From: a candidate division TM6 bacterium GW2011_GWF2_32_72
GTDB lineage: Bacteria > Babelota > Babeliae > Babelales > CAIQNR01
Length of the DNA stretch: 64,000 bases
Direction of reading: 5' to 3'
Assembly: GCA_945882015.1 (NCBI GenBank)
Contig: CAMCVM010000003.1
Coordinates: 33,342-97,341, forward strand
The notes under the pieces were generated by a model, which worked only from the letters and a program-made list of their open reading frames with translations, did no database searches and had not been told where the DNA came from. Below are positions 7,988 to 63,276 of this stretch, one piece after another. The position numbers were made by a program, and so were the translations under genes. Position 1 is the first letter of the stretch; every line of letters begins with the position of its first letter.

Positions 7988-8018
7988 ACTAAGTATTTTA
8001 AATGTTGGGGTTATAACT

Positions 8019-8708
8019 ATGGTTACTGTTTTTAATCGTTTTCTTTTAATTATTTTGGTATCGTTTTCAGGTTTGTTTGCAAAAGGTTTACGTGAAATTG
8101 CTCACTTGCCGCATGCGCAAGCTCTTATTACAAAAGTATTTAAAGAGCGTGGGTTAGATCCAAAAGATTTTGAATTTACATTTTATAATAAAAAAGGTGA
8201 CAATTGGTTATATTATCCAGGAATAAATGGTTTTTCTTTTGATTTATGGGACCTTGAAAAAGTTAACGATACGATGAATTATCCAGACTCTTTGTATCAA
8301 TTAATAAATTGTGACCGGTTTGGGCTTAAAAGCAGAAGAGAGCATCTATTATCTACTCAAGGATTTATAGGCCATGAATTGCAACATGCATGTGATCGTG
8401 CAGCAATAATCGATCTCTATTCTAGTGGGAAAAATTCAGATGAACTTACAGAAGAACTAAAAAAATTAGAAGCAAGAGCAGATCTTTTTTGTTCATCTGA
8501 TCCTGAAGTATTAAGAGCTTTAGCCAGATCTTTTAAGTATGCTTATGAACAAGTTAGATTACTTACTTTTTCAGGAAATCATGAAGCATGTACAATGTAT
8601 CTAAAAAAAATTGATCCAATACATCCTACATTCATTCAAAGATATCATTATTTATGTGCAGCAGCAGCTCAACTTGAGCAAGAAGGCTGTGGTTCTGCTC
8701 AACGATAA
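8019..8708 (+). CDS. secreted HExxH-motif protein, tandem paralog 2 of 5
   Basis: 229 aa. Residues ~21-60 are almost identical to paralog 1. HExxH is intact (GHELQHACDR), followed by ARADLFCSSDPEVLRALA. Confidence 0.8.
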   Translation: MVTVFNRFLLIILVSFSGLFAKGLREIAHLPHAQALITKVFKERGLDPKDFEFTFYNKKGDNWLYYPGINGFSFDLWDLEKVNDTMNYPDSLYQLINCDRFGLKSRREHLLSTQGFIGHELQHACDRAAIIDLYSSGKNSDELTEELKKLEARADLFCSSDPEVLRALARSFKYAYEQVRLLTFSGNHEACTMYLKKIDPIHPTFIQRYHYLCAAAAQLEQEGCGSAQR

Positions 8709-8794: not shown

Positions 8795-9562
8795 ATGAAA
8801 TTGCATAGATTAGGATTATTTGCTGTATGGATTCTATCTTTTCAACTACAATCAAGCTTTGTTTTTACAAAAAAAGCATATCCTTTAATAGTCCAAAGTT
8901 ATCTATTAGTAAAACGTCATGCAGCAAATCAACCATCTTTTGCTCTTAATGAATCGTTTAAAGAAAAAGATTGGGATAGATATTGGCGCCATTTCCCTTA
9001 TGCAGCATCGGCAGTAAAAGATATTTTTAATGCGAGAAATACCAGTCCAAAAGAATTTAGCTTTATTATAAAGCAAACTATAAATTGGGAATATTGTTGT
9101 GCTTTTAATACCTTTTATTATCCACAACAAGACATAGCAGAATTTGATGATACGTTACAAAGACAAACTTGGGGACTTGCTGAAAAAAAGAGATTACATT
9201 GGGATATTATGAAAGATGGTATGACAACTAAACAGCAGCATGTTCTTCTTGTAAAAGGGATTATTGGGCATGAACTACAGCATGCTTTTGATAGAGGCCA
9301 ACTGTTGTTATTATTGCATTCTCCTGTTGCTCTCCACTCTCAAGATAAAAAATATCAAATACTTAAAGAACTTGAACATAAGGCAGATACGTATGCTTCA
9401 CAAGATCCAGCAGTACTGGAAGCACTTGCAAAATTTTTTATGCATCTGCATCTATTGCATATAAAAAATCAAGAACTAGACCAAGAAAGTAAACAACATC
9501 CATCATGTTTAGAACGAGCACAGTATTTTTTTGAATTAAGTAAATTAAGAACGAAAAAATAA
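8795..9562 (+). CDS. secreted HExxH-motif protein, tandem paralog 3 of 5
   Basis: 255 aa with a signal-like N-terminus. Motifs: FPYAASAVKDIFNARN..PKEFSF, GHELQHAFDR, HKADTYASQDPAVLEALA. Confidence 0.8.
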   Translation: MKLHRLGLFAVWILSFQLQSSFVFTKKAYPLIVQSYLLVKRHAANQPSFALNESFKEKDWDRYWRHFPYAASAVKDIFNARNTSPKEFSFIIKQTINWEYCCAFNTFYYPQQDIAEFDDTLQRQTWGLAEKKRLHWDIMKDGMTTKQQHVLLVKGIIGHELQHAFDRGQLLLLLHSPVALHSQDKKYQILKELEHKADTYASQDPAVLEALAKFFMHLHLLHIKNQELDQESKQHPSCLERAQYFFELSKLRTKK

Positions 9563-9566
9563 AAGA

Positions 9567-9638
9567 TTATTCTGCAATTTCATAAAAATTAAGCCCGTGT
9601 TCTTTAAATCTTCTATTGGCAGAAGATTAATTGACACC
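9567..9638 (-). pseudogene. relic copy of the 3' end of the downstream regulator gene (the intact end is at 11439)
   Basis: The reverse strand reads ..SSANRRFKEHGLNFYEIAE-stop, compared with ..SSVNRRFKEHGLNFYETAE-stop for the real gene. An in-frame stop lies just upstream and there is no ORF body. Confidence 0.75.
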
Positions 9639-9723
9639 TAAGTTGATTTTTTTATTAATTAATTTTATCTTTTACTGATTCTTTAATAGAATAAAAATTA
9701 AAAATAAATAAAAAGGATCAAAA

Positions 9724-10509
9724 TTGAAGTTACACAAAATAGCTCTATTTTTCGTATTATCTGGATCTATAAGTTTGCACGCGATTCCTTTTTTACAAAG
9801 AGGGAAAAATCTTTTAGGTTTAGCTGCCGCTCATTTATCAAGAAAAAATCCGTCTTTAAATAATCAAAGATTGCTGAGTCAAAAATCGTTTAAACCAGGC
9901 AGCTTTGAAGCAATGCAGCGTGATTTTCCGCATGCAGCACAGAAAGTACAAGATATTTTTGCTGCAAGAAATCAAAATACAAAATCATTTGAATTTTTTT
10001 GTAAAGGTGAAAATATGTGGAATATTGTTTCTCTTCCACTCAACGTTTTTCATTATTCACAAAAATTTATGCAAGAAATTGATGATACCTTGAAGAAACA
10101 ATCAGATGTGTTAACAAGTGTATTGCCTCTTAATGAAACTTTAAGATGGGGAATCGAGACTAAACAAGAACAGGTTTTTCTTTTTTATGCAAGAGTTGGT
10201 TATTATTTGGAATGTAGCATTAATGTTAGTCAATGGCTAGAGTTATTAGCTATTGATAATGATAATATTAGATTTAATAAGCAGGTAGATTTTGTGCATA
10301 AAGTATACACTAATATGTATGGTGCTAAAAATCCAGAAATACCAGAAATATTAAAAGTCCTGCTTAAATATTATATGCATCAGCATGAATTATCTAAGGA
10401 TTTGTATGAAGCTCAATCTTTGATTACTCCAAAAGAGTTAGAGCCATTAACAAGCTTAGGAAGAGCCAAATTTATATCAAATTTAATTAAACAAAAAACG
10501 AAAAAATAA
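9724..10509 (+). CDS. secreted paralog 4 of 5, HExxH motif degenerate
   Basis: 261 aa with a TTG start 8 nt after AAGGA. It shares FPHAAQKVQDIFAARN..FEF with the family, but the HExxH position reads GYYLECSINV. Confidence 0.75.
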   Translation: MKLHKIALFFVLSGSISLHAIPFLQRGKNLLGLAAAHLSRKNPSLNNQRLLSQKSFKPGSFEAMQRDFPHAAQKVQDIFAARNQNTKSFEFFCKGENMWNIVSLPLNVFHYSQKFMQEIDDTLKKQSDVLTSVLPLNETLRWGIETKQEQVFLFYARVGYYLECSINVSQWLELLAIDNDNIRFNKQVDFVHKVYTNMYGAKNPEIPEILKVLLKYYMHQHELSKDLYEAQSLITPKELEPLTSLGRAKFISNLIKQKTKK

Positions 10510-10513
10510 AAGA

Positions 10514-10585
10514 TTATTCTGCAGTTTCATAGAAATTAAGCCCGTGTTCTTTAAATCTTCGGTTGGCAAAATATTAATTGAAACC
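10514..10585 (-). pseudogene. second relic copy of the regulator gene's 3' end
   Basis: ttattctgcagtttcatagaaattaagcccgtgttctttaaatcttcggttggc is near-identical to 11439-11495 and to 9567-9620. Confidence 0.75.
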
Positions 10586-10660
10586 TAATTATTAATTAAT
10601 TTTATCTTTTACTGATTATTTAATAAAATAAAAATTAAAAATAAATAAAAAGGATCAAAA

Positions 10661-11431
10661 TTGAAGTTACACAAAATAGCTCTATTTTTCGTATTATCTG
10701 GATTTGTAAGTTTGCATGCGATTCCTTTTTTACAAAGAGGTAAAAATATTTTAGGTTTAGCTGCCGCTCATTTATCAAGAAAAAATCAGTCTTTAAATAA
10801 TCAAAGGTTGCTGAGTCAGAGATCTTTTAAATCAGATAGTTTTGAAGCAATGAAGCATGATTTCCCGTATGCAGCACAGAAAGTACAAGATATTTTTGAT
10901 ACAAGAAATAAAAATACAAGAGGATTTGAATTTGTTATTAAAGGTAATAATACTTGGGGTTATGCTCCTGCTGTACAAGCTTTTTATTATCCACAAATAT
11001 GTATTCAAGAAGTTGATGATACGTTGCAAATAAAGACAGAGGGGTTACATCAAGAAGATAGGTCACCTTACGATTATAGCAAAGATGGAATAAAGACTAA
11101 ACAAGAACAGGTTTTACTTTTTTATGGAATGGTTGGATATCATTTACAGCGTTCTGTTGATTGGAATAAGTGGCTAGAATTATTAGCTATAAATGATGAT
11201 AATATTAGATTTAATAAGAATATAGATCTTTCGTGTAAAGCATACACTGATATGTATGGCGCAAAAAATCCAGAAATACCACAAATATTAGAAGTAATGG
11301 TCAAATATTATATGCATCAGCATGAATTACATAAAAATAAAGGATTGTATGTACCAAAAGAGTTGCGGCCGTTAACAAACTTAGGGCGAGCCAATTTTTT
11401 ATTTAATTTAATTAAACAAAAAACGAAATAA
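10661..11431 (+). CDS. secreted paralog 5 of 5, HExxH motif degenerate
   Basis: 256 aa with a TTG start. The N-terminal ~60 aa are near-identical to paralog 4. The HExxH position reads GYHLQRSVDW. Confidence 0.75.
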   Translation: MKLHKIALFFVLSGFVSLHAIPFLQRGKNILGLAAAHLSRKNQSLNNQRLLSQRSFKSDSFEAMKHDFPYAAQKVQDIFDTRNKNTRGFEFVIKGNNTWGYAPAVQAFYYPQICIQEVDDTLQIKTEGLHQEDRSPYDYSKDGIKTKQEQVLLFYGMVGYHLQRSVDWNKWLELLAINDDNIRFNKNIDLSCKAYTDMYGAKNPEIPQILEVMVKYYMHQHELHKNKGLYVPKELRPLTNLGRANFLFNLIKQKTK

Positions 11432-14573: not shown

Positions 14574-14795
14574 TTAAGCTGCTTTTTGAGGAGCTGCTTT
14601 GCGTTTTGCAACTTTACGTTTAGCTGCTTTTTTAGGAGCGGCTTTACGTTTTGCAACTCTGCGTTTAGCTGTTCTTTTAGGAGCAGCCTTACGTTTTGCA
14701 ACTTTACGTTTAGCTGTTCTTTTTGGAGCAGCTTTACGTTTTGCAACTCTCTTTTTAGCAACTCTTTTTTTGGTTGCTTTCTTTACTACTGTCAT
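14574..14795 (-). CDS. histone H1-like / Hc-like lysine-alanine-rich DNA-binding protein
   Basis: 73 aa from ATG 14795 (strong GAGGGAG RBS; the ORF track starts 6 codons earlier). Sequence is MTVVKKATKKRVAKKR followed by (VAKRKAAPKRTAKRK)x3.8. It is extremely basic and bounded by its own terminator. Confidence 0.75.
   Translation of the reverse strand: MTVVKKATKKRVAKKRVAKRKAAPKRTAKRKVAKRKAAPKRTAKRRVAKRKAAPKKAAKRKVAKRKAAPQKAA
14577..14747 (-). repeat. in-frame 45-bp tandem repeats (about 3.8 units) encoding VAKRKAAPKRTAKRK
   Basis: The repeat is directly visible in the DNA (gctttacgttttgcaact.t.cgtttagctg.t.tttt.ggagc) and in the translation. Confidence 0.85.
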
Positions 14796-14942
14796 TGTAC
14801 TCTCCCTCACCATTACGGTTACTCATATTTCCTTCCAACTGATGATACACCCAGGTGATTTTACTTCTGATGATACAGATTTAAATGAGAAGAAGTCAAC
14901 AATTTTTTTACAAGTAAAGATTTTTTTTATGATAAAAAATTC

Positions 14943-33167: not shown

Positions 33168-33914
33168 TTATGCTACAAAAATTTCTCCATTTTTTCTATA
33201 AGCTAATGCTGGTTTATGGCGACGAATATTAAATAAAAAGTGACCAATAATAGTAGAGCAGTTAAGTAAAGGCTTATTGCTTAAATGCATCTGACGCATA
33301 AGATGAAACCCAAAAACGCTCATTGCGTAAGGATTAAACCAATGTTCATGACGATATTGCGTATGAAGGCTAGTAAAATAACATCCTGCAACCATTGATA
33401 CAGAAAGGTCTATCCAGGGATTGTTTAATCCAGAGGCTTTTTTAAATCCTCTAACTAATAATTGTGGTAACATAACATAGAGCGCTTCTTCTTCAATTAC
33501 ATTAGCTAGAACGTCAAGGTAATTGATTTTAGGAGCTTGTTGCGGTTTATTATTTGGCTTCTCCCACCATCTCGGTTTGGGGGGTTCTTGCCTTGGAGCA
33601 ATTATACTGCGTAAATTTTGAGCACTGTTATCAAGCAATACAGCATCGAGGCATAATCGTGCCCCTGCCAATAATTGTTGACCTAAATCTGGTTGAGTAG
33701 GAAGCAATCCTAAATCTTGACCTACTGTTTTAGCTAAATAAGATAATCCAGCACGGGCAAGAGCAGGAACAGCTGATTGAGATTCTTGTGTAAATGCAAA
33801 TTTATTGTAAGTAGTTATAAAAATTAAAAAAAATAGATATTTCTTATAATCAGTGAGTATCAAGCTTTTTTCTTTCATGATAGGTTTTTGTATTAACAGA
33901 GTAATTGTATTCAC
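33168..33914 (-). CDS. hypothetical membrane-associated protein
   Basis: 248-aa ORF with a probable start at the internal Met 33878 (MKEKSLILTDYKKYLFFLIFI..). It has C-terminal hydrophobic segments. No family was recognised with confidence. Confidence 0.5.
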   Translation of the reverse strand: MNTITLLIQKPIMKEKSLILTDYKKYLFFLIFITTYNKFAFTQESQSAVPALARAGLSYLAKTVGQDLGLLPTQPDLGQQLLAGARLCLDAVLLDNSAQNLRSIIAPRQEPPKPRWWEKPNNKPQQAPKINYLDVLANVIEEEALYVMLPQLLVRGFKKASGLNNPWIDLSVSMVAGCYFTSLHTQYRHEHWFNPYAMSVFGFHLMRQMHLSNKPLLNCSTIIGHFLFNIRRHKPALAYRKNGEIFVA

Positions 33915-34075
33915 TAGTAGAAATTATATACTGATTATTGGAAAATTCAATAGATTGTGTTTAAGCAAGATTAAGCCTGTATTCTTAACTTTCTTTCTGT
34001 GTTTTTATTGACAAATAGAGTAGTTATTTGTCAAGATTATAAGTGATGAAAGGGTCTTATATGCAGGGGGTTATT

Positions 34076-34621
34076 ATGAATTATAACTACAGTTTTTTAG
34101 TTTTATTAAGCTTATTTTATTCTATTTCTGGGGATTATGCTCATGATAATAATAGCATAGTTATGGATTTTACCACTAATTTGTATCCAACAACGCCAAT
34201 GAAAAAAGTACAATCGCTGACCATGAAATTGTGGGGGCATGTTGATGCAGCATTTTACCATGAACAAATGCGTGAAACATTTATGGTTAATCAAGAGCAG
34301 TTTGCTCATCAAGTGATTATGTTGCAAAGCATGCTTGATTTTTTATTGTGCTCCCTTGAACAACAAGCCTATGAGTGCCCTGATTGTGTAACACATGCTT
34401 TGTATGATTTTGAGCATTTAGTGCAAGCATTTGCCCAAATGAAGCATCATTATCAAGCTTTGATAGATTATTATCAGCGTTATGATGCTCCATGCGTTGT
34501 GATTAACTATATGTTGCAGTTTATGTATGAAAAATTAAAAGAAGTTGTAGAGAATCAAAGGATTAATACTCCGCTTTATGCAATGCTTACTGTTAAACGT
34601 GAGAACTTTTTAGTAAGTTAA
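34076..34621 (+). CDS. hypothetical secreted protein
   Basis: I prefer ATG 34076, preceded by the AGGGGG RBS, over the upstream start at 34043. The N-terminus is MNYNYSFLVLLSLFYSISG. No family was recognised. Confidence 0.6.
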   Translation: MNYNYSFLVLLSLFYSISGDYAHDNNSIVMDFTTNLYPTTPMKKVQSLTMKLWGHVDAAFYHEQMRETFMVNQEQFAHQVIMLQSMLDFLLCSLEQQAYECPDCVTHALYDFEHLVQAFAQMKHHYQALIDYYQRYDAPCVVINYMLQFMYEKLKEVVENQRINTPLYAMLTVKRENFLVS

Positions 34622-34678
34622 ATTATTATATTTTTCATTCGCTCTTCTCATATTCAATCTTAATCAACTATTGCTGTA

Positions 34679-35056
34679 CGCCCTACGCGGGCGTTGCGGC
34701 AAAGCGGGGTTACTGCCAACCCCCTTTGCAATCCGGGCACCAGGGATAAATCCCTTGGAACCCTTTGCAAATTCTAATTCCCTCCGGTTCGCGCTCGCCT
34801 TTGCTACGCACGGCTGCACGTCTGAAGATAATTTGCGCTAAAGTACTTAACTTGATTAGAAAAGATGTCATCATGAGCGCAGCGTGGTGATCCAAGATTA
34901 TAGTTTATTAATGATAGCTCTTTATCAGCTTAGCTGAGCGGAAGTCCCGCAGGATCTGCAGTGAATCTAAGCGTGGGGTTTTAAGGGGTACCCCCTAATG
35001 TGTTGAGTCCAGAGGGGTGCACAAACATCCCTTTGGTGCAACGCCCGCAGAGGGCG
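34679..35056 (+). repeat. GC-rich hairpin-dense repeat element, copy A (MITE/REP-like or structured RNA)
   Basis: The ends are palindromic GC hairpins forming ~19-nt terminal inverted repeats (CGCCCTACGCGGGCGTTGC ... GCAACGCCCGCAGAGGGCG). Its reverse complement matches 46152-46504. GC content is far above the surrounding sequence. Confidence 0.85.
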
Positions 35057-35199
35057 CGCAGAGAGTAAATAATTAAGATTAAATATTAAGAGAAAAATAG
35101 AACTACAAAAATTAATACAAATATAATCTTGGACCTTCACACTGCCTTCAGGGTGACATCTAAGAAAGAACACTTTTAAAATAAGAAAATTTGTAAGCT

Positions 35200-38001: not shown

Positions 38002-38048
38002 TTTTTAAGATAGTAACTATGATAGTCCGACGTTTATAATGTTGCAAG
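38002..38048 (-). promoter_or_regulatory. sigma70-like promoter of the 929-aa gene; copy 1 of a 47-bp direct repeat
   Basis: The minus strand reads TTGCAA(38047-38042)-17 nt-TATCAT(38024-38019), about 30 nt upstream of ATG 37989. It matches 38767-38813 at 46 of 47 positions. Confidence 0.6.
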
Positions 38049-38064
38049 GTTATGCAAAAGAGAA

Positions 38065-38451
38065 TCAATTTTTATTTTTTTGTAATACTTCAATAAGCTC
38101 ACTAAATGCTTTCTTGAATGATGGGAGTAAGATGATCAATTTACTGATTGCGTTATCCATATAAGTATGAGATGTCATATTACGCATATCTAAAAAATCA
38201 AACCATAATTGCGGTTCAATATTAAATTTTTCAGCAGATTTCCTAAAAACTTCTCTTGGGCTTTTTGTTTCAATTCCTTCATGAAGTAAGGCTCTTTTGA
38301 GGGCTTTCCAACTTAATTCATAGCAATATTCAAATGCTTTTATAACGGCCGTTTCTTCTGCTTCATTCTGCATTTTTGAGAATTGTAGTAATTTTTTTTC
38401 TGCTTTAATCAGTTGTTCAATATTAACTTTTTCATAATTTTCTTTATTCAT
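38065..38451 (-). CDS. hepT: HEPN-domain toxin, nucleotidyltransferase substrate-binding (HI0074/HepT) family
   Basis: 128 aa and helical, with the Rx4-6H HEPN motif in DMRNMTSHTY. It overlaps the upstream NTase gene by 8 nt. Confidence 0.8.
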   Translation of the reverse strand: MNKENYEKVNIEQLIKAEKKLLQFSKMQNEAEETAVIKAFEYCYELSWKALKRALLHEGIETKSPREVFRKSAEKFNIEPQLWFDFLDMRNMTSHTYMDNAISKLIILLPSFKKAFSELIEVLQKNKN

Positions 38452-38752
38452 TTTCTATTCCTAGATTTTTTTTATTAAGCAGTACTAGATCTTTTTCAAT
38501 ACTGGCAACGAATTTCGGATCACAACGTTCTTGTATTACAACGTCAACCGTAAATGGTAAATAAGATTCTTCAAAAGCATCGTTAATATAAAACGATTCT
38601 AAATTGGTGACTGGCTCTTTAATGAATAAATCTAAATCAGAAAATTTACGGCATTTACCGGTTACCCGGGATCCAAATGCGTAAAAGGTAAAGGGAAACT
38701 GTTTAATAATTTCCCAAACTATTTTTTTATCTTTTTCTTCCATATAAATCAT
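38444..38752 (-). CDS. mntA: minimal nucleotidyltransferase antitoxin (MNT/MntA, HI0073 family)
   Basis: 102 aa. The pol-beta NTase motif is AFGSRVTGKCRKFSDLDLF (GS-x9-12-DxD). It is paired with a HEPN gene. Confidence 0.8.
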   Translation of the reverse strand: MIYMEEKDKKIVWEIIKQFPFTFYAFGSRVTGKCRKFSDLDLFIKEPVTNLESFYINDAFEESYLPFTVDVVIQERCDPKFVASIEKDLVLLNKKNLGIENE

Positions 38753-38766
38753 AGAGGCTTACTTTC

Positions 38767-38813
38767 TTTTTAAGATAGTAACTATGATAGTCAGACGTTT
38801 ATAATGTTGCAAG
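38767..38813 (-). promoter_or_regulatory. copy 2 of the 47-bp repeat; likely promoter of the mntA-hepT operon
   Basis: It carries the same TTGCAA(38812-38807)-17 nt-TATCAT(38789-38784) arrangement, about 30 nt upstream of the mntA start. Confidence 0.55.
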
Positions 38814-38943
38814 TATACTGAAAAAAGAGAAGCTTAATTTTAAAAAAATAAGCTTAAAATCTAATTATTCTTGTTACTGAGTTATCTATTTTGTTATAAT
38901 CAGAAGCGTATCAAGGTAAATCAGAATCAAAAAGGAGGTTTTT

Positions 38944-46151: not shown

Positions 46152-46504
46152 CGCCCTCTGCGGGCGTTGCACCAAAGGGATGTTTGTGCACCCCTCTGGA
46201 CTCAGCACATTAGGGGGTACCCCTTAAAACCCCTGACGCTCTGATTCACTTCTGGCCCTTTATTACATTGCACACAATGTAATACGGTTGCATCCGATCA
46301 ACAGAGCTAATACAGAGCTATCATTATTAATTAAAGAGATACTTTAGCGCAAATTATCTGAGACGTGCAGCCGTGCGCAGCAAAGGCGAGCGCGAACCGA
46401 AGGGAATTATAATTTGCAAAGGGTTCTAAGGGATTTATCCCTGGCACCTGGATTGTAAAGGTGGTTGGTGATAACCGCCTTTACCGCAACGCCTGCGTAA
46501 GGCG
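46152..46504 (-). repeat. GC-rich hairpin-dense repeat element, copy B (inverted relative to copy A)
   Basis: 46152-46249 is the reverse complement of 34961-35056 with 2-3 differences. 46342-46504 is the reverse complement of 34679-34844 at roughly 88% identity by eye. The centre has diverged with indels. Confidence 0.85.
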
Positions 46505-46560
46505 CTCATAAATAATGTTAGAAATTATGATGTTAGAAGCAAGAATGAGGATAGGGAATA

Positions 46561-46679
46561 AATATAATCCTGGACCCTTCAGCCTACGTTAAAACTACGG
46601 CTGACAGGCACGCTAAGCTTTCATATGCTCGTGCGCCATAGCCTTGGCGACGGTGGAACACTGCGTTCAGGATTATATT
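46561..46679. repeat. 119-bp GC-rich element bounded by a perfect 12-bp inverted repeat
   Basis: AATATAATCCTG (46561-46572) pairs with CAGGATTATATT (46668-46679). A related left end (AATATAATCTTGGACCTTCA) occurs at 35120-35139. The element lies 28 nt 3' of the minus-strand gene ending at 46708. Confidence 0.7.
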
Positions 46680-46707
46680 GAAAAAACGCTATCGACCGCG
46701 TAGATCG

Positions 46708-62997: not shown

Positions 62998-63249
62998 ATG
63001 GCAAAGACAAAATCAGAAATCACAGAAACGGTAACAACATTGGTTGCTCAAATTCTTGAAAAAGAAGACACCATTTCAATTATTCCAGCAGTCCACTTAA
63101 AAGATTTAGGAATGGACCAGTTTGATGTTATTGAATTGGCCATGAAGTTAGAAGATCAATTAAGTATTGCAATTGATGATAAAGAGATTGAGCATTTTGA
63201 TTCAATTGAAAGCGTGGTTGAATGTGTTGCAGGCAAAAAGGTAGAGTAG
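62998..63249 (+). CDS. acyl carrier protein homolog lacking the phosphopantetheine-attachment serine
   Basis: 83 aa and acidic. LKDLGMDQFDVIELAMKLEDQL aligns with ACP DLGADSLDTVELVM. The DSL serine codon is CAG (Gln). Confidence 0.75.
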   Translation: MAKTKSEITETVTTLVAQILEKEDTISIIPAVHLKDLGMDQFDVIELAMKLEDQLSIAIDDKEIEHFDSIESVVECVAGKKVE

Positions 63250-63276
63250 ACGACGTCCATTAATAAAAGAAAGAAG

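Follow-up and report, generated by a model that had tools for sequence, protein, structure and literature searches.

The 64,000-nucleotide stretch analysed here (the window; positions 33,342 to 97,341 of contig CAMCVM010000003.1, assembly GCA_945882015.1, candidate division TM6 bacterium GW2011_GWF2_32_72) comes from the Dependentiae/Babeliales, a group known almost solely from metagenomes, the Babeliales members being parasites of protists. It carries two GC-rich, hairpin-dense islands, copy A and copy B of one element, and the question that they raise is what kind of sequence this element is. An original prediction, made from the letters of the window, had offered as candidates a selfish repeat of the MITE (miniature transposable element with inverted repeats), repetitive extragenic palindromic (REP) or Rickettsia palindromic element (RPE) kind and a structured non-coding RNA, with a decaying duplication as the fallback. 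Our preferred answer, to which we assign a probability of about 60%, is that the two islands belong to a lineage-specific repeat family of a Babeliales chromosome, mosaic in build, non-coding and non-autonomous, similar to MITEs and to bacterial interspersed mosaic elements (BIMEs). As far as checked, this repeat family has so far not been described.

Two mosaic copies in the window

Copy A (34679-35056, plus strand) and copy B (46152-46504, minus strand) were found to be homologous from end to end (BLAST E = 2e-75). With a GC content of 51.9% and 49.0%, respectively, against 35.6% for the window, both are GC-rich islands located and oriented as the original prediction had them. The prediction had also described, by eye, one nearly identical arm, another at about 88% identity and a diverged centre, and realignment bears this mosaic out: the 3' arm (34958-35056 versus 46250-46152) is 93-97% identical, reaching 99% across its terminal 82 nucleotides (nt), the recomputed pairwise alignment of the 5' arm (34679-34845 versus 46504-46340) gives 88.6-89.7%, and the centre, which contains indels, is 49-70% identical. 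Much of the central divergence is due to a REP-type hairpin insertion of about 60 nt (34846-34905) that is present in copy A and absent from copy B. The centre also exists in two variants, a short "alpha" segment in A and a 22-nt AT-rich "beta" hairpin (46262-46283) in B. That gene conversion had homogenised the 3' arms of A and B was considered and rejected, the excess identity not being significant over the 99-nt arm (Fisher p = 0.29).

The motif GCAACGCCY-N3-7-RGGCG occurs four times in the window, in all four cases at a copy end, compared with 0.00 occurrences in shuffles. Terminal inverted repeats of about 19 nt, another feature read from the letters, are present at all four ends in the window, and an inverted repeat of 19-26 nt is found at the ends of A, B and a further copy, L176; they are, however, neither general nor the bounds of a single unit, as the GTTGC/GCAAC terminal inverted repeat is restricted to these three copies and the others have different terminal hairpins and linkers. 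Between the terminal hairpins, the element measures 353-431 nt.

Inverted pairing of two homologous arms

Sequence comparison shows that what had been taken for one element is an inverted pair: two homologous but diverged arms of about 170 nt, termed M1 and M2, joined tail to tail. This description follows from the findings that (i) an nhmmer profile of the full copies also matches the reverse strand of each element itself (E = 2e-11), (ii) direct alignment of the M2 arms with reverse-complemented M1 arms gives a mean identity of 61%, and (iii) a covariance model, R1, built solely from the last 105 nt of the M2 arms, recovers every M1 arm at full length on the opposite strand (E = 1e-12 to 1e-5).

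Read from the centre to the outside, an arm consists of stem P2 around a variable insert, the 5-bp helix P4/H3, the 11-bp helix P5/H2 and the 5-bp terminal hairpin T, whose loop has the consensus GNRKA. Where no gene truncates it, the arm carries on outwards as an AT-rich spacer (about 55 nt) followed by a REP-like hairpin (consensus TGTCATCCTGAGCGCAGCGTGAGGATCCAGGATTATATTT) with a 5-bp stem that covaries. This outer part is complete on the right of copy A (35057-35159), is represented by the spacer alone on its left (34622-34678), and occurs on the M1 side of copy B (46505-46605). Inverted pairs, tandem arms and solo arms were all seen, and the arms are also nested, with REP-type and other small hairpins inserted inside them. 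The coordinates of the individual parts are collected in Table 1.

Covariation and folding

Ten M2 arms were aligned with MAFFT and their helices were called with RNAalifold, with 500 shuffles and structures slid by 1-3 columns serving as controls. In this alignment 94.9% of the cells were paired and 10 of the 45 pairs had changed on both sides, a result equalled by none of the 500 shuffles, and the slid structures gave 30-61% paired cells. A model-fitted alignment of 18 arms, which leans towards the model, had 94.8% of its cells paired, with changes on both sides in 19 of 30 pairs. Variants of P2 include GCTTAG/CTAAGC, GCTCTG/CAGAGC and GCTTTA/TAAAGC, and those of the terminal hairpin CGCCC/GGGCG, GGCCT/AGGCC, GCCCC/GGGGC and CGGCC/GGCCG. 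Within the M1 arms the terminal hairpin and H2 covary (H2: GCAAAG/CTTTGC, GTAAAG/CTTTAC and CCAAAG/CTTTGG), while the remaining 100 nt or so are almost invariant and for that reason uninformative on pairing. As with REP-type elements, selection acts on the hairpins. The inference of selection on a folded structure, drawn originally from two changes that preserve the hairpins (CGCCC/GGGCG to CGCCT/AGGCG and GCAAAG/CTTTGC to GTAAAG/CTTTAC), is thus sustained far above shuffled and slid controls, and both changes were confirmed. A long-range closing stem, GTTGC...GCAAC, was discarded: its 5' side is invariant, changes on its 3' side are uncompensated, and it is missing in several copies.

As to whether the folded molecule is RNA or single-stranded DNA (ssDNA), which the original prediction left as alternatives, the structure is kept but nothing shows RNA, both strands folding equally once composition is controlled. 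Folding energy favours the given strand by 5-14 kcal/mol for M2 and the opposite one by 2-11 kcal/mol for M1; dinucleotide shuffles reproduce these strand offsets and the two strands have similar z-scores, so the asymmetry is compositional, reflecting an excess of G over C on the centre-to-outside strand. A single sense transcript with both arms as one folded unit was rejected, since M1 folds better on the other strand and the asymmetry is compositional. On the centre-to-outside strand, a tally of the per-pair listing for P4, P5 and T gave 21 G-U cells versus 1 A-C cell, from few independent events and in an alignment built on that strand. Neither spacer contains a promoter-like or terminator-like site above chance, whether a promoter in the AT-rich part or a terminator at the hairpins.

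Copies and turnover in sister strains

The window falls within a 78-kb metagenomic contig (ENA ERZ27280302), and sister strains of its population occur in several ENA, JGI and Logan metagenome assemblies. A scan of the JGI metagenomes with a degenerate 24-mer yielded three further full copies (L013, L010 and L012), and a fourth, L176, was reached via a spurious open reading frame (ORF) in a protein database; the search for additional copies that had been recommended extended the family beyond the two in the window. At least seven loci carry arms across closely related metagenomic strains: full copies at the two window loci, L013, L010/L012 and L176, and arms at L002:5010-5467 and L005:1-135. 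Several short-read contigs (L004, L005, L008 and L095) end inside the element, and the repeat family accounts for short-read assembly breaks at its sites.

Presence/absence polymorphism was observed at four sites, among strains sharing 90-99% identity. Over the 1343 nt leading to the stop codon of the acyl carrier protein (ACP) gene, L012 and the window are 99.0% identical; at that point the L012 element sets in precisely at its terminal hairpin and the window carries no element; beyond this filled/empty site the two are not collinear, and the pair defines the left junction only. L002 has a composite of arms and REP-like hairpins of about 800 nt where the window has 90 nt, and two complete arm units in tandem, not inverted. 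In L005, an arm with its spacer and REP-like hairpin lies beside a gene whose neighbour differs in strain L004, and the copy between grpE and mj0711 differs in arm composition among the window, L176 and L002. No direct repeat shared between the two sides was found to flank A, B, L013 or L010. A direct repeat, TAGGGTAA, flanks the L002 composite, which lacks a simple empty counterpart.

Each of the four independent full copies is found just past a stop codon and at least three are between convergent genes, in spacers where no canonical terminator was found. In L010 (ACP) and L013 (ABC ATPase) the terminal hairpin abuts the stop codon. Between A and B lie 11 kb that retain the gene order conserved among Babeliales, ssb ... 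p929-p423-grpE-mj0711-lepA; here the p423/p929 pair is duplicated in tandem. In nearer relatives the grpE-mj0711 spacer is 66-120 nt long and without the element, in one case with a canonical bidirectional terminator, and the nearest metagenome-assembled genome (MAG) has an extra gene between grpE and mj0711. Ancestral presence of the element at the grpE locus (copy B) was rejected on account of these relatives and of the gene in the nearest MAG.

Distribution among other Babeliales

When four copies were compared with Rfam (15) at gathering and at permissive thresholds, no family was assigned, group I/II introns included, the best match to the element scoring 16 bits versus a cut-off of 38 bits; over the window, Rfam reported two tRNAs and nothing else above threshold. 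Three exact or degenerate patterns run against 185,579 reference genomes gave nothing outside the lineage, diverged relatives not being detectable in this way, and neither a pattern scan of viral contigs nor blastn against plasmids and phages gave a match. Covariance models were also run on about 0.8 Mb of Babeliales loci that had been fetched for other reasons, with a shortened calibration that makes the E-values rough; as model R2 includes L098 and L117, the independent scores for these two are those of R1 only. A clear diverged M1-type arm was detected at L098:9428-9544 (MAG CAYSQM01; 30 bits with R1, 60 bits with R2), in which T, H2 and H3 are all retained with different sequences, and a P5+T module at L117:692-797 (MAG CANNMA01; 43 bits with R2). 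The weak matches were, in L111, an inverted pair lying downstream of lepA and, in L015, a single match, both in long GC-rich palindromic spacers. The arms in other genera are about 60% identical. Diverged arms are hence present in two further Babeliales MAGs (L098 and L117) and possibly in two more (L111 and L015), so that conservation in related genomes, which the original prediction had made a test, takes the form of diverged versions. No description of such repeats was found among the accessible Dependentiae/Babeliales literature on repeats, MITEs, non-coding RNAs and the REP-like string.

A probable mosaic repeat family and its rivals

Overall, we favour a MITE/BIME-like family because the element is multi-copy and non-coding, is built of inverted homologous arms, is modular and nested, is gained or lost between nearly identical strains, is absent at the corresponding sites of relatives and matches no Rfam family. 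Like MITEs, it is under about 600 bp, non-coding, with inverted termini and polymorphic dispersed copies. Between the two identities originally put forward, the MITE/REP-like one better fits the mosaic, polymorphic and nested behaviour; the structured non-coding RNA fits less well but retains some likelihood. Copies would spread, or be moved, by an enzyme encoded elsewhere, together with recombination between copies. Close strains differ in their copies, and segments are exchanged among these. The hairpins may be kept because the folded single strand is recognised, or because it renders a copy harmless or stable; the strand in question could be DNA, in the course of mobilisation, or else RNA, within read-through transcripts. 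Survival would be mainly just past stop codons, often between convergent genes, where a copy disrupts no promoter.

Several observations weigh against this reading. No transposase, RAYT (REP-associated tyrosine transposase) or other mobilising gene was found among 40 window ORFs and no autonomous parent element was seen; nor did the fetched loci yield a RAYT gene, save for an ordinary IS200-type insertion with different hairpins. The search for target-site duplications at the ends of other copies, which had been advised, gave no clean duplication, TAGGGTAA in L002 being the sole direct repeat at a polymorphic site. The stems of the terminal hairpins covary and have no fixed sequence, which is unusual for inverted repeats bound by a transposase. 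The M1 core (about 100 nt) is conserved far beyond pairing needs and diverged arms persist in other genera (L098 and L117), both of which would also fit a functional RNA. Finally, with about 7 loci and 18 arms the data set is small, and one of the two covariation tests was made on a model-fitted alignment.

A rival explanation takes the element for a structured-RNA family, either of cis-acting 3' untranslated region modules that protect or terminate the transcripts of convergent genes or of small RNAs running outward from the AT-rich centre, multi-copy spread then being secondary. We hold this to be improbable, though not negligible. It would account for the covariation of several helices, the GNRKA loop conserved on a covarying terminal stem, the near-invariant M1 core, G-U rather than A-C in well-supported helices (21 versus 1 cells), the placement of full copies after stop codons (at least three of four between convergent genes, without a canonical terminator there) and the retention of arms at about 60% identity in other genera; yet promoters and terminators are not above chance, the folding asymmetry between strands vanishes in z-scores, opposite strands would be required for the two arms of an element, and the G-U excess comes from few independent events in an alignment built on that strand. 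Presence or absence between 99%-identical strains, along with truncated and solo arms, also speaks against a needed gene. A related and more speculative proposal, which we consider unlikely, is that the arm of about 105-170 nt might be an order-wide Babeliales structured RNA or ssDNA module with a specific protein or ribonucleoprotein partner that reads the GNRKA-loop hairpin and the M1 core. If this were true, the arm could act as a substitute for a terminator or insulator or as a 3'-end stabiliser between convergent genes, in a phylum regarded as almost devoid of mobile DNA, or else as the recognition element of an unknown mobilisation system.

A gene-less derivative of an IS200/IS605-type insertion sequence (IS), that is, a palindrome-associated transposable element (PATE) whose hairpins would be sub-terminal TnpA sites and whose right arm would be a TnpB/IscB guide-RNA scaffold, is in our view very unlikely: a Y1 transposase (PF01797) does follow gyrA in a sister strain, there are hairpins at the ends, and no target-site duplication was seen, as expected of IS200/IS605, but the ends are inverted copies and not same-strand hairpins, the hairpin at the left end of the IS200 element in L003 is unrelated, the terminal hairpin is followed by a conserved spacer and not by a variable guide-like flank, no tnpB or iscB is nearby, and Rfam gave no match to any family, whichever guide-RNA models it includes. 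The notion of a decaying local duplication, or of inverted repeats bounding a composite or invertible 11-kb segment, draws on the inverted orientation of the window copies around 11 kb with paralogous genes. It has practically no probability left, as copies occur at unrelated loci and in other strains, the 11 kb are conserved core synteny with a tandem gene-pair duplication and not a mobile island, no inversion is seen among strains, and the substitutions preserve structure; the fallback of the original prediction is refuted by the extra copies and the synteny. Nor do we give any appreciable credence to a small protein encoded by a 56-aa ORF across M1 or a 68-aa ORF across M2 and the spacer. 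Both are open in copy A, the M1 ORF has one match in a protein database (P0001), and in our own reading of the alignment 5 of the 10 substitutions in the M1 core fall at third codon positions. Against this, P0001 is another copy of the element (the L176 locus), the M2 ORF has no relative in the database, and the substitutions follow the hairpins. The longest frame, that of 56 aa in A, is broken in copy B through an indel of 1 nt, and the two copies have different start codons, so that no ORF is conserved between the copies, in line with the earlier statement that neither contains a credible one.

Feature coordinates, smaller hairpins and neighbouring genes

Table 1. Parts of copies A and B, their outer flanks and a related empty site (window coordinates)
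Feature	Position	Strand	Details or basis
AT-rich leader of the copy A left arm, homologous to the ~55-nt spacers of other arms	34622..34678	+	Outer-flank alignment by eye; begins directly after the stop codon of ORF 34043-34621 (sequence)
Copy A arm M1	34679..34845	+	Terminal hairpin 34679-34693, H2 34699-34729, H3 34740-34758
Copy A M1 core, nearly invariant	34740-34843	+	Alignment of copies
Copy A M1 as found by the M2-only model	34677-34788	-	E 2e-12
REP-type small hairpin unit, copy A centre	34846..34905	+	Hairpin and tail 34864-34903; same insertion in L176 and L002
Copy A arm M2	34906..35056	+	P2 34928-34933 with 34967-34972, P4 34983-34996, P5 35009-35036, terminal hairpin 35042-35056
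AT-rich spacer outside the copy A right arm	35057..35118	+	Homologous to spacers of L002, L005, L176 and L010
REP-like hairpin closing the copy A right arm unit, inward-pointing	35119..35159	-	
Copy B arm M2	46152..46341	-	Terminal hairpin 46152-46166, P5 46172-46199, P4 46212-46225, P2 46238-46243 with 46302-46307; AT-rich "beta" hairpin 46262-46283
Copy B arm M1	46342..46504	-	H3 46426-46444, H2 46455-46484, terminal hairpin 46490-46504
AT-rich spacer outside the copy B M1 arm	46505..46559	-	87% identity to the spacer of L002:4927-5009
Variant REP-like hairpin, then CCAGGATTATATTT	46560..46605	-	Closes the copy B M1 arm unit
Hairpin CCGTCGCCAAGGCTATGGCGCACG beside copy B	46630-46653	-	Also within the L012 M1 arm
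Degenerate REP beside copy B	46655-46680	+	
Empty site, ACP stop codon plus ACG	63247..63252	+	Filled in strain L012

The REP-like hairpins form a second, smaller repeat family, consisting of the hairpin TGTCATCCTGAGCGCAGCGTGAGGATCC followed by AGGATTATATTT, with a covarying stem and a conserved loop. Its members in the window (34864-34903, plus; 35119-35159, minus; 46560-46605, minus; 46655-46680, plus) lie exclusively beside or within the large element, and others occur in L002, L176 and L005. In the other-genus locus L098, GTCATCCAGAG motifs of this type were read by eye at about 8010-8080 and 9860-9890. The hairpin presumably resembles a hairpin repeat of many phyla. A third small hairpin repeat, CCGTCGCYAARGCTATGGCG, adjoins copy B on the minus strand and is also inserted in the L012 M1 arm (at about 2180-2215). 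In L117, the P5+T module is followed by three tandem T-hairpin units (L117:790-960) that recur about every 85 nt and have the compensatory stem changes TGCAC/GTGCA and TGCCC/GGCA. The final codons and stop of ORF 34043-34621 (34590-34621) lie in sequence similar to a degenerate REP with its spacer, CGTGAGAA...ATTATTATATTT, and the repeat may have supplied the 3' end of this ORF.

The window itself is ordinary chromosome: 40 of its ORFs scanned with Pfam are common chromosomal genes, among them FtsH, a PBP, tRNA synthetases, GrpE, LepA, GyrA, a Xer-like recombinase and FabD, and its LepA is at most 86% identical to that of any of the 185,579 reference genomes, the best matches all being Babeliales/Dependentiae MAGs, which makes the bacterium an uncultured Babeliales. 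Between 35200 and 45387, the pairs p423+p940 and p417+p929 (no Pfam match) constitute a tandem duplication of what is single-copy between ssb and grpE in other Babeliales. A toxin-antitoxin pair of the HEPN/MNT type (PF08780 plus PF01909/PF18765) lies on the minus strand at 38065-38752 and is exactly bracketed by 62-nt direct repeats (38002-38063 and 38767-38828) that are 89% identical; at this spot sister strain L002 has a single repeat copy and different content, and the region looks like a swappable cassette. An IS200/IS605-type element (PF01797 Y1 transposase, long left-end hairpin) lies just after gyrA at L003:14990-15307 and is absent from the window (at about 55775); its left-end hairpin is unrelated to the repeats studied here. 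Other repetitive features of the window are four 45-nt tandem repeats on the minus strand at 14574-14798, which encode a Lys/Ala-rich, histone-H1-like peptide, three tandem paralogues of about 255 aa at 8795-11431 (period about 937 nt, 76-93% identity, no Pfam match), and a leucine-rich-repeat protein with 72-nt DNA repeats at 80-1030. Leucine-rich-repeat proteins with such repeats are typical of host-interaction proteins in intracellular bacteria.

Comparison with known systems

The covariation, the absence from Rfam and the diverged arms in other genera make the family a reasonable candidate for a curated model. Structured, recombining repeats that differ between 99%-identical strains would mark recent genome change in these parasites of protists, whose first cultured Dependentiae/Babeliales member was described as nearly free of mobile elements, with one IS4 transposase (PMC4378268). 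On present evidence, the repeat family does not represent a new kind of mechanism.

With MITEs of obligately or facultatively intracellular bacteria, among them those of Coxiella burnetii and the Rickettsia palindromic elements (PMC5896051), the element shares a short, non-coding and palindromic constitution that is GC-richer than the host, multiple copies in a small AT-rich intracellular genome, positions that abut or overlap gene ends, and hairpin potential. It differs from them in showing no sequence similarity in the searches made (exact-pattern genome scans, which are blind to diverged relatives), in having arms that are multi-hairpin modules of about 170 nt kept by structure rather than a short inverted repeat around a spacer, and in that no target-site duplication, parent IS or in-frame gene insertion, the last being frequent for the Rickettsia elements, was seen. 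The REP, BIME and REPIN-RAYT systems (REPINs being REP doublets that form hairpins; PMC2817692, PMC3337134, PMC3733652) are likewise made of small GC-rich hairpins of alternating orientation in mosaics with other motifs, lie beyond gene ends, have inverted doublets as the apparent unit and keep the hairpin while stems vary. REPs are extragenic imperfect palindromes of 20-40 nt with many copies. In form, the terminal hairpin (15 nt) and the REP-like one (about 27 nt), both with covarying stems, would suit this description. The foot of the REP palindrome bears a conserved GTAG or CGTC tetranucleotide (PMC3733652). In contrast, the hairpin feet here, (T)GTG|CGCCC and GATGTCATCC, are neither; the doublet measures 350-550 nt versus about 100 nt, and no RAYT gene was seen. 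The copy number of the family is probably modest.

Pneumococcal BOX, Neisseria Correia and enterobacterial ERIC elements are composed of modules variable in number and order, are co-transcribed with their neighbours and have strong predicted secondary structure. The present element resembles them in being modular, variable in order and structured; its sequences are unrelated to theirs and its modules are inverted homologues. The palindrome-associated elements of IS200/IS605, for their part, have in common with it the hairpin ends, the lack of a detected target duplication and a structured region of about 100-150 nt beside the end, but here the ends are inverted and not direct, the flank is conserved, and there is no TnpA/TnpB partner. 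In form, the closest known systems are the Rickettsia palindromic elements and Coxiella MITEs, which have the same niche and similar habits, the REP/BIME/REPIN mosaics with their hairpin doublets of alternating orientation, and modular repeats such as BOX.

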